Assembly (NCBI RefSeq): GCF_003790525.1
Contig: NZ_CP033635.1
From: Escherichia coli
GTDB taxonomy: Bacteria > Pseudomonadota > Gammaproteobacteria > Enterobacterales > Enterobacteriaceae
Direction: 5' to 3' (one strand)
Length of the DNA stretch: 64,000 nucleotides
Each line of letters opens with the position of its first letter. The first letter of the stretch is position 1. The notes below the pieces were generated by a model. That model had not been told where the DNA came from and made no database searches. It saw nothing but the letters and a program-made list of their open reading frames with translations. The translations under genes were made by a program, and so were the position numbers. Positions 3,458-63,428 of this stretch are shown piece by piece.

Positions 3458-4630
3458 TTATTGTCCTGCGAGTTGCTGAAGGGCTGTGATGACGCGGTCG
3501 GCATCGGCGGTAGTCATATCCGGGAACAGCGGCAACGAACAGATGCGTTCGCTATTCCATTCGGTATTCGGTAACGACAGCGTGGGAAAACGCTCGCGAT
3601 AATATTTTTGTGTGTGAGCGGCGCGGAAATGTAACCCGGTACCAATACCTCTTTCTTTTAACGCTTCCATCAACGCATCGCGACTGATACCACAACGTTG
3701 TTCATCGACACGAATAATAAACAGATGCCAGGCGTGAACGTGCGGCCAGGCGGGAAGGCTTAATGGCTGAAAGGGGAGAGCTGCCAGTGCTTGCTGATAT
3801 TGCTGGGCAATTTCGCGCCGACGGGTGTTGAGGTGCTCTAATTTTGCTAACTGTGTCAGGGCAATCGCGGCGTTAATATCGGTCAGATTGTACTTATAGC
3901 CCGGTGTTAAGACTTCAGCTTGCGGTGCACGGCCCCAGGTTTGTCTGTCATAGGCATCGACACCCAGACCGTGAAATTTCAGCATCCGTAGCTGGCGGGC
4001 AAGGTTTTCATTATCAGTTACAATCAGGCCACCTTCAGCACAGGTAATATTTTTAATGGCATGAAATGAAAAAATAGCGGTACCTTTTGCGCCAATATGT
4101 CGCCCTTTGTAATACGTACCGACGGCATGGGCAGCATCTTCGATAACTGCGATGCCGTAACGTTCGCCAATGGCGCGAATGGCGTCAATATCTGCTGGCG
4201 CACCGGCATAATGCACCGGAATGATGGCTTTAGTGCGTGGCGTAATGGCTGACTCGATCGCTTCAGGCGTGACCATCAGCGTATCGCGGTCGACATCCAC
4301 CATTACCGGCGTTGCACCCAACAAGGAGATCATATTGAGGGTTGAAACCCAGGTCAGGGAAGGCGTAATCACTTCATCGCCCTTGCCTATTTCCAACGCC
4401 ATTAGCGTGATATGCATTCCGGCGGTGGCTGAACTGACCGCGATGGCATGCTGATTTCCCGTCAACTGGCAAAAGGCTTGTTCAAGCGCCTGATTCTTCG
4501 GACCGGTTGTGATCCAACCGGATTCGAGAACCTCTTTAACTGCAGCGAGTTCCTCCACGCCCATTGCTGGTCGCGAAAAAGGCAAAAATTCTGACATTGC
4601 TTTTCCTTCCGCCATTGAATACCTGTCCAC
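3458..4630 (-). CDS. arnB: ArnB, UDP-4-amino-4-deoxy-L-arabinose--oxoglutarate aminotransferase (PLP-dependent, DegT family)
   Basis: 390-aa ORF of the DegT/ArnB aminotransferase family. The true start may be an internal Met (M6 or M12 of the ORF), giving about 385 or 379 aa. Confidence 0.9.
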
Positions 4631-4695
4631 TTATATTTGCTATAAAGAGTGTTGTGTATATTTTGCCATTTGGAGCAAAATTTTAAGGATAGAAT

Positions 4696-4712
4696 ATTAA
4701 CTTAACCTTAAG
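4696..4712 (-). promoter_or_regulatory. PmrA (BasR) box in the arnB promoter region
   Basis: Minus strand reads CTTAAG-GTTAA-GTTAAT, matching the PmrA direct-repeat consensus YTTAAK-N5-YTTAAK, about 66 bp upstream of the arnB start. Confidence 0.7.
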
Positions 4713-4904
4713 AAACTAATATTAGACGTAAATATTGAAATTTTTATATTTTTTCTTATTTAGGCTTTGCATTTGGCAAAATTTTGAGGCATTTTGCCGG
4801 CATCGCAGGATTTTTAATATTACACCAACTGCTAATTATCGCCAGAAATGTCGCTCAATTTCACGGTAATTGTCTGGTTGCGCTTGTCTATAGGTGGAGT
4901 TTAC

Positions 4905-5507
4905 GTGTTAGCTTTTTGCCGCTCTTCGTTGAAGTCAAAAAAATATTTCATCATTTTACTGGCGCTCGCTGCAATTGCCGGACTGGGTACTCATGCCGCC
5001 TGGAGTAGCAATGGTTTGCCACGTATCGACAATAAAACGCTGGCCAGACTGGCACAGCAGCACCCGGTTGTCGTTTTGTTTCGCCATGCTGAACGTTGCG
5101 ATCGTTCAACCAATCAATGCTTGTCAGATAAAACAGGTATTACGGTCAAAGGTACCCAGGATGCCCGTGAACTGGGCAACGCTTTTAGTGCTGATATCCC
5201 TGATTTCGATCTTTATTCCAGTAATACCGTCCGGACCATTCAGTCGGCGACCTGGTTTTCAGCGGGTAAAAAATTGACGGTAGATAAACGACTTCTTCAA
5301 TGCGGTAATGAGATTTATAGTGCAATTAAGGACTTACAAAGCAAAGCACCTGATAAAAATATCGTTATTTTTACCCATAATCATTGCCTGACATATATTG
5401 CTAAAGATAAGCGTGATGCGACATTTAAACCTGATTATCTGGATGGTTTAGTCATGCATGTGGAAAAAGGCAAAGTTTATCTGGATGGGGAATTCGTTAA
5501 CCACTAA
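4905..5507 (+). CDS. ais: Ais, aluminium-inducible putative LPS core heptose(II)-phosphate phosphatase
   Basis: ORF 4848-5507 contains the Ais sequence (…[19 protein letters not shown]…EFVNH). Start placed at GTG 4905 to give the 200-aa form; signal peptide and histidine-phosphatase RHAER motif present. Confidence 0.85.
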
Positions 5508-5971: not shown

Positions 5972-6248
5972 AGGGGTATTCCTTATAAATAAAAAGAAAC
6001 CATGAGAATACGGTAACTCAGAAATATGTGAAAGTGACAGTAATCTCTTTTGCGATGATAACTGTACTTATTATTATTTTTGTGTGTATCGATAAAGTGT
6101 GTTTATTTTTGCGGCGTTTAATTATTTAAGAAGTATTTAGTTACAATAAGTGACTAGATCCCTTTTTTCGCTCATTGAATCCTCTGCGCCAGGCAGTACA
6201 ATCCCGCAGCTTTGGGAATTTTGATTAATTGCTTGTGGGAAAGGGGAT

Positions 6249-63109: not shown

Positions 63110-63428
63110 GGGAGATATTCTAGTTGCGAGTGAAGGTTTTGTTTTGACATTCAGTGCTGTCAAATACTTAAGAATAAGTTATTGATTTTAACCTTGAATT
63201 ATTATTGCTTGATGTTAGGTGCTTATTTCGCCATTCCGCAATAATCTTAAAAAGTTCCCTTGCATTTACATTTTGAAACATCTATAGCGATAAATGAAAC
63301 ATCTTAAAAGTTTTAGTATCATATTCGTGTTGGATTATTCTGCATTTTTGGGGAGAATGGACCTGCCGACTGATTAATGAGGGTTAATCAGTATGCAGTG
63401 GCATAAAAAAGCAAATAAAGGCATATAA

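Follow-up and report, generated by a model that had tools for sequence, protein, structure and literature searches.

In E. coli, the main chromosomal route to polymyxin/colistin resistance is the arn operon, which attaches aminoarabinose to lipid A; the ais product trims a core-heptose phosphate. The operon arnBCADTEF is controlled by BasRS (PMC10962826), and ais expression drops in serum together with that of arn, basRS, yjdB, and ugd (PMC4145685). The PmrA/BasR box of the arn promoter is already known biology; it is the switch by which PmrA/BasR, and the pmrAB resistance mutations, act on the arn operon, and its confirmation adds nothing new to the picture of polymyxin resistance. The remaining detail is the coupling of ais to the box from about 100 bp away, a modest question of promoter architecture.

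The closest described system is the pbgP (pmrH/arnB)–pmrG (ais) locus of Salmonella enterica, which has the same gene pair, the same divergent layout, and a box at the homologous position in arnB orientation. The Salmonella box CTTAATGTTAATTTAAT is followed after 10 nt by TAGGGT, and the core promoter block of ais/pmrG is common to both species. The differences are that both half-sites are perfect YTTAAK in Salmonella, whereas in E. coli half-site 2 begins with G; that the gap between the box and the pmrG −10 element is 67 nt in Salmonella and 77 nt in E. coli; and that the pmrG spacer contains TTTAAG in Salmonella and TTTGAG in E. coli. Verified Salmonella PmrA boxes consist of CTTAAG, 5 bp, and then XTTAAT (PMC3973317).

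In Klebsiella pneumoniae, the pbgP box CTTAAT-ATTAT-CCTAAG has been footprinted with PmrA, studied by NMR, and crystallized with activated PmrA (PMC2565834, PMC3973317, PMC4660055). Two PmrA DNA-binding domains lie head-to-tail on its half-sites, with the half-1 site at the −35 element of the pbgP promoter that depends on PmrA (PMC2565834, PMC4660055). Like the E. coli arnB box, it is a direct repeat with hexamers 11 bp apart; however, Klebsiella pbgP additionally carries a PhoP box and has a second start site that depends on PhoP, whereas E. coli, Shigella, and Salmonella are without a PhoP box (PMC2565834), and in the Klebsiella loci that we compared ais is not adjacent to arnB. The pho box of PhoB with its sigma-4 contact is likewise an 11-bp direct repeat that replaces the −35 element and binds a tandem winged-helix dimer, but it differs from the PmrA box in half-site sequence. 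The PhoB/sigma-4 complex was the docking template of the authors of the PmrA–DNA structure, and the PmrA–sigma-4 contact is a model only (PMC4660055).

Within E. coli itself, the ugd promoter has the box CTTAAT-ATTAA-CTTAAT at −39 to −23, then 10 nt and the −10 element TATTCT, a geometry like that of arnB. The ugd box differs in being a perfect match to the consensus (12/12) and in serving a single gene, with no divergent promoter sharing it.

The window analyzed here is a stretch of 64,000 nucleotides of E. coli DNA (NZ_CP033635.1). The 701 bases around the box find a match in 5418 of 5426 complete genomes, and in several RefSeq E. coli genomes the identity is 100%. On either side of the box lie arnB and ais, identified from annotated RefSeq E. 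coli chromosomes at 100% identity, and nudI, yfaZ, and yfaY follow downstream of ais in the RefSeq annotation. The features of the locus are as follows.

3458–4597, minus strand: arnB, from the RefSeq annotation of an identical genome and its open reading frame.
4598–4670, minus strand: arnB 5′ leader, 74 nt counted from the start site at 4671, ending before the RefSeq ATG at 4597.
4671, minus strand: arnB transcription start site (A), equal to MG1655 2365854 (+), a Cappable-seq primary start site (PMC12987492, Table 1).
4680–4685, minus strand: probable arnB −10 element TAAAAT, assigned by its place 10 nt after half-site 2, at −14 to −9 of the start site.
4696–4712, minus strand: PmrA/BasR box, with half-site 1 CTTAAG at 4712–4707, spacer GTTAA, and half-site 2 GTTAAT at 4701–4696.
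4713–4766, no strand: AT-rich spacer from the box to the ais −35 element, containing no TTAA core.
4767–4772, plus strand: probable ais −35 element TTGCAT (conserved TTGCnT), 17 nt 5′ of the −10 element, conserved in 13 of 15 taxa and placed from the start site.
4790–4795, plus strand: probable ais −10 element CATTTT, at −12 to −7, within the conserved block GGCATTTT.
4802, plus strand: ais transcription start site (A), equal to MG1655 2365723 (−) (PMC12987492, Table 1).
4802–4904, plus strand: ais leader, 103 nt.
4905–5507, plus strand: ais (pmrG), LPS core heptose(II)-phosphate phosphatase, with a GTG start.

The length of the arnB–ais spacer depends on the arnB start codon, three of which are in use. 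The 274 bp of the original prediction holds only with the longest open reading frame (GTG at 4630, 390 aa); the RefSeq (PGAP) start at ATG 4597 (379 aa) gives 307 bp (4598–4904), and the start of the K-12 record, an ATG equivalent to 4615 (385 aa), gives 289 bp. All three codons lie downstream of the start site at 4671, and therefore the transcript does not choose among them. An Rfam scan of 4400–5100 (E ≤ 1) found no RNA family in the arnB or the ais leader.

Both start sites were taken from a re-analysis of Cappable-seq data for E. coli K-12, in which the primary starts of arnB, ais, and ugd (the last at MG1655 2099734 (−), outside the window) were seen only under antibiotic treatment (PMC12987492); they are thus starts of antibiotic-treated cells rather than of cells induced by Fe3+ or low Mg2+ or of a basR mutant. 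They were transferred by the relation window = 2370525 − MG1655 coordinate, which involves no indels and was checked base by base, and they lie 131 bp apart. The transcription starts of Kim et al. 2012 include no arnB or ais promoter start under the conditions of that study. It should also be mentioned that a generic sigma-70 scan returned TAGACG-16-TATATT (4723–4750, plus strand) and GTGAAA-18-GATAAT (minus strand), both of which lie off the mapped starts; the number of matches equaled the shuffle expectation, and these candidates were rejected.

The element at 4696–4712 reads ATTAACTTAACCTTAAG on the plus strand and CTTAAGGTTAAGTTAAT on the minus (arnB) strand, which is exactly the CTTAAG-N5-GTTAAT that had been noted at this place on the arnB strand. 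It is a direct repeat of two hexamers with the 5-nt spacer GTTAA and an 11-bp repeat length; the pair CTTAAG/GTTAAT agrees with the consensus at 11 of 12 positions and fits CTTAAG-N5-XTTAAT exactly. In the 64-kb window, the exact box pattern is found a single time, and 100 dinucleotide-preserving shuffles do not produce it at all. The loose consensus YTTAAK-N5-YTTAAK with at most one mismatch gives three matches in the window against 3.75 expected; such a scan has no discriminating power, and therefore a position weight matrix (PWM) was built instead, from 45 unique boxes located 5′ of arnB in non-Escherichia genomes only. With this matrix, the box scores 25.6 bits and takes first place among 127,956 positions, the best unrelated position reaching 13.7 bits. 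The same box read on the ais strand is second in the window (13.8 bits), because CTTAAG is its own reverse complement.

Relative to the arnB start site, the box spans positions −41 to −25. A TAnnnT hexamer stands at the same 10-nt offset from the box in all 15 taxa compared and also in the E. coli ugd promoter; the layout shared with ugd makes the geometry the standard one for PmrA, with the arnB −10 element slightly farther from the start than usual. At arnB, phosphorylated PmrA would bind CTTAAG and GTTAAT as a head-to-tail dimer, half-site 1 would stand in for the −35 hexamer, and RNA polymerase would start at 4671 from TAAAAT, 10 nt past the box; such activation from a site overlapping the −35 element would be of class II. 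The replacement of −35 recognition by PmrA~P, with a possible sigma-4 contact, is what the family would lead one to expect, and the orthologous Klebsiella footprints make BasR binding at the box in this strain likely. A search of the accessible literature for gSELEX data (Ogasawara 2012) on the box found none.

We conclude that the PmrA box almost certainly drives arnB. The interpretation of the element as a PmrA box, advanced in the original prediction, is upheld by the published definition, by the placement at −41 to −25, and by its conservation 5′ of arnB across Enterobacterales. The fuller statement, that the arnBCADTEF promoter has its PmrA (BasR) box in the 17-bp element at 4712–4696 (minus strand) and that this element also serves ais, we make with good but lesser confidence.

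The conservation of the box is stronger than that of its surroundings. A 37-nt segment made up of the box and 10 nt to either side is found unchanged, at 100% identity, in 5374 of the 5426 complete E. coli genomes, whereas only 1244 of 5415 have 99% identity or more over the whole arnB–ais spacer; in five diverse E. coli strains, one of them K-12-like, substitutions occur on both sides of the box and none within it. Most of 80 Enterobacterales loci have the box 5′ of arnB in arnB orientation. In the spacer alignment of Escherichia, Salmonella, and Citrobacter, the box block GAATATTAAnTTAACnTTAAGAAA is the best conserved, and the second conserved block is the ais core promoter TTGCAT-17-CATTTT, which is conserved but weak.

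In Citrobacter, Klebsiella, Enterobacter, and other genera, arnB has the box without having ais as its neighbor. It is also kept 5′ of ais in five genomes without an adjacent arnB: ais is preceded by menE in C. rodentium, C. freundii, and locus L097, and by pmrD in Intestinirhabdus alba, and in C. tructae a PMT-family gene is divergent from ais. Since the box is retained with arnB alone and with ais alone, both genes appear to need the same element. It should be added that the genomes in which the box is kept at ais also keep an arnB-type −10 element beside it, and the retention could serve this arnB-type promoter rather than ais.

Four loci in which ais does not adjoin arnB and the box is kept, L085 (2261–2500), L094 (1220–1500), L097 (941–1200), and L092 (1251–1500), have a TAnnnT hexamer at exactly 10 nt from the box, pointing away from ais (TAATAT, TATATT, TAATAT, and TAGAAT), and the 10-nt spacer and all downstream sequence have diverged. 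Judging from the nucleotide sequence, an orphan arnB-type promoter of this kind would make a transcript of 70–100 nt running into the terminator hairpin of menE or pmrD.

Another arrangement was observed in E. coli 2017-19-1CC (L090, NZ_AP027854.1), where IS1 lies between menE and ais, at a place corresponding to about 4779 of the window and leftwards. Between menE and ais, this isolate has neither arn genes nor a PmrA box nor the ais −35 element, and the junction is at ...CAAATTTTGAGGCATTTTGCC; it therefore lacks the arn operon at this locus, and its ais gene is separated from the box.

With regard to ais, the original prediction reported no second equally good box on that side and left a choice between one shared site and a degenerate ais site. 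The PWM scan for which it had asked agrees on the first point: no second PmrA box was found on either strand of 4598–4904, where no other position exceeds 5.4 bits, and the box, at 25.6 bits, is the only recognizable PmrA site between the divergent starts at 4671 and 4802. Nor is there a TTAA core between the box and the ais −10 element (4713–4790) in E. coli. The box is very probably the sole PmrA site in the arnB–ais spacer. On the second point, the absence of a second box and of a TTAA core and the retention of the box with ais, at a nearly constant distance, without an adjacent arnB favor the shared site, and we consider it moderately probable that the same single site is responsible for ais. 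A text search of the accessible literature for 'pmrG promoter' or 'ais promoter' found nothing.

The geometry at ais is quite different from that at arnB. Relative to the ais start site, the box spans −106 to −90, is centered at −98, and stands in reverse orientation, which is unusually far for direct activation and counts against sharing. If the site is shared, the same box would act on ais in reverse orientation from this distal position, and it might do so by a contact with the alpha subunit of polymerase along bent AT-rich DNA, by relieving H-NS silencing, or by the two together.

The distance between the box and the ais −10 element, which is 77 nt in the window, falls into a few classes: 77 nt in seven taxa, 67 nt in five, and 56, 69, and 64 nt in one taxon each. 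Taxa of the 77-nt class share only 57–79% sequence identity over the gap, which suggests a constraint on gap length. The gaps of 77, 67, and 56 nt keep the helical phase, and two lineages, with gaps of 69 and 64 nt, depart from it. Phase is kept in about two of four inferred indel events, too few independent events, and the helical phasing of the box to the ais promoter is suggestive and not significant.

Polymerase contact has to be weighed against the possibility that the box controls ais without any contact, PmrA binding or transcription from the arnB promoter either relieving H-NS silencing or sending negative supercoils to the ais promoter 131 bp away. The base composition of the spacer points in this direction, with a GC content of 22% at 4650–4749 and 26% at 4700–4799 in 100-nt windows, and PMC3661553 lists the region between ais and arnB among the H-NS-bound 'promoter islands'. 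The spacer being AT-rich and H-NS-bound, silencing relief is thus plausible, besides or instead of long-range polymerase contact. The presence of the box with TAnnnT at 10 nt in 15 of 15 taxa, in four of which only a terminator lies downstream, also hints that the divergent promoter matters. However, the exact spacing of 77 or 67 nt in 12 of 15 taxa is more easily explained by a stereospecific contact, and we regard control without contact as unlikely, although the two mechanisms at ais are not exclusive.

A more specific proposal combines these observations. One PmrA dimer site would serve two divergent promoters in two geometries, overlapping the −35 element at arnB and acting from a reversed distal position at ais (−98, or −88/−77 in relatives), and the retention of the box, 10 nt, and TAnnnT after loss of the adjacent arn operon could mean either that the divergent promoter is needed for ais, for instance through supercoiling or H-NS displacement, or that a short PmrA-dependent transcript is made. 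We put this proposal forward as rather improbable.

The alternative of a degenerate PmrA site of its own by the ais core promoter, with the strong box serving arnB only, draws on two sequence features. Just 5′ of the ais −10 element, the conserved block TTTAAGGCATTTT of the relatives contains one consensus half-site, TTTAAG, and a weak match CTTATT-TAGGC-TTTGCA (8/12) overlaps the ais −35 element. But the half-site of the relatives lies inside the −35/−10 spacer (about −19 to −14), which is not an activating position, and has no partner half-site 11 bp away, while all E. coli sampled have TTTGAG there and ais is induced nonetheless. In addition, the matrix gives at most 5.4 bits everywhere in this region outside the main box, 4713–4790 contains no TTAA core in E. 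coli, and ais retains the strong box even without arnB beside it; we find a separate ais site highly doubtful.

The reading of the motif as a fortuitous, non-regulatory match in AT-rich intergenic DNA, to which the very AT-rich region and the chance frequency of the one-mismatch loose consensus in the window might lend color, is of negligible probability given the exact pattern in 0 of 100 shuffles, the first rank among 127,956 positions with an independent matrix, the conservation of its place and orientation across Escherichia, Salmonella, and Citrobacter, the invariance of the box in 99% of E. coli genomes, and the expected distance between the box and the mapped start site.

Several further features of the region were recorded. 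A 14-nt direct repeat, GCAAAATTTT(A/G)AGG, occurs at 4675–4688, in the −10/start region of arnB, and at 4776–4789, in the −35/−10 spacer of ais; the latter copy belongs to an 8-bp inverted repeat, GGCAAAAT-N8-ATTTTGCC, at 4776–4799. As the site of a second regulator, the 14-nt repeat was rejected, its conservation not extending to Salmonella or Citrobacter; it may have arisen by chance in AT-rich DNA or be specific to Escherichia. In Citrobacter amalonaticus (L007), the arnB 5′ leader contains about 210 bp of inserted sequence that no other taxon has, which moves the box to −327 from the start codon.

Elsewhere in the window, TTTAAGAAGTATTTAGT at 6125–6141 (plus strand), just 5′ of yfaZ, matches the loose PmrA consensus with one mismatch; it falls within the promoter sequence of the yfaZ start site of Kim et al. 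2012, and such matches occur at chance frequency. The next-best PWM matches in the window are found at 63164–63206 (plus strand), with 13.7 and 10.7 bits and 20 nt apart, in a long non-coding stretch 5′ of an 890-aa open reading frame whose length fits rcsD. This stretch may be the micF/ompC control region, and the two matches may be OmpR-type direct repeats that cross-react with the PmrA matrix.
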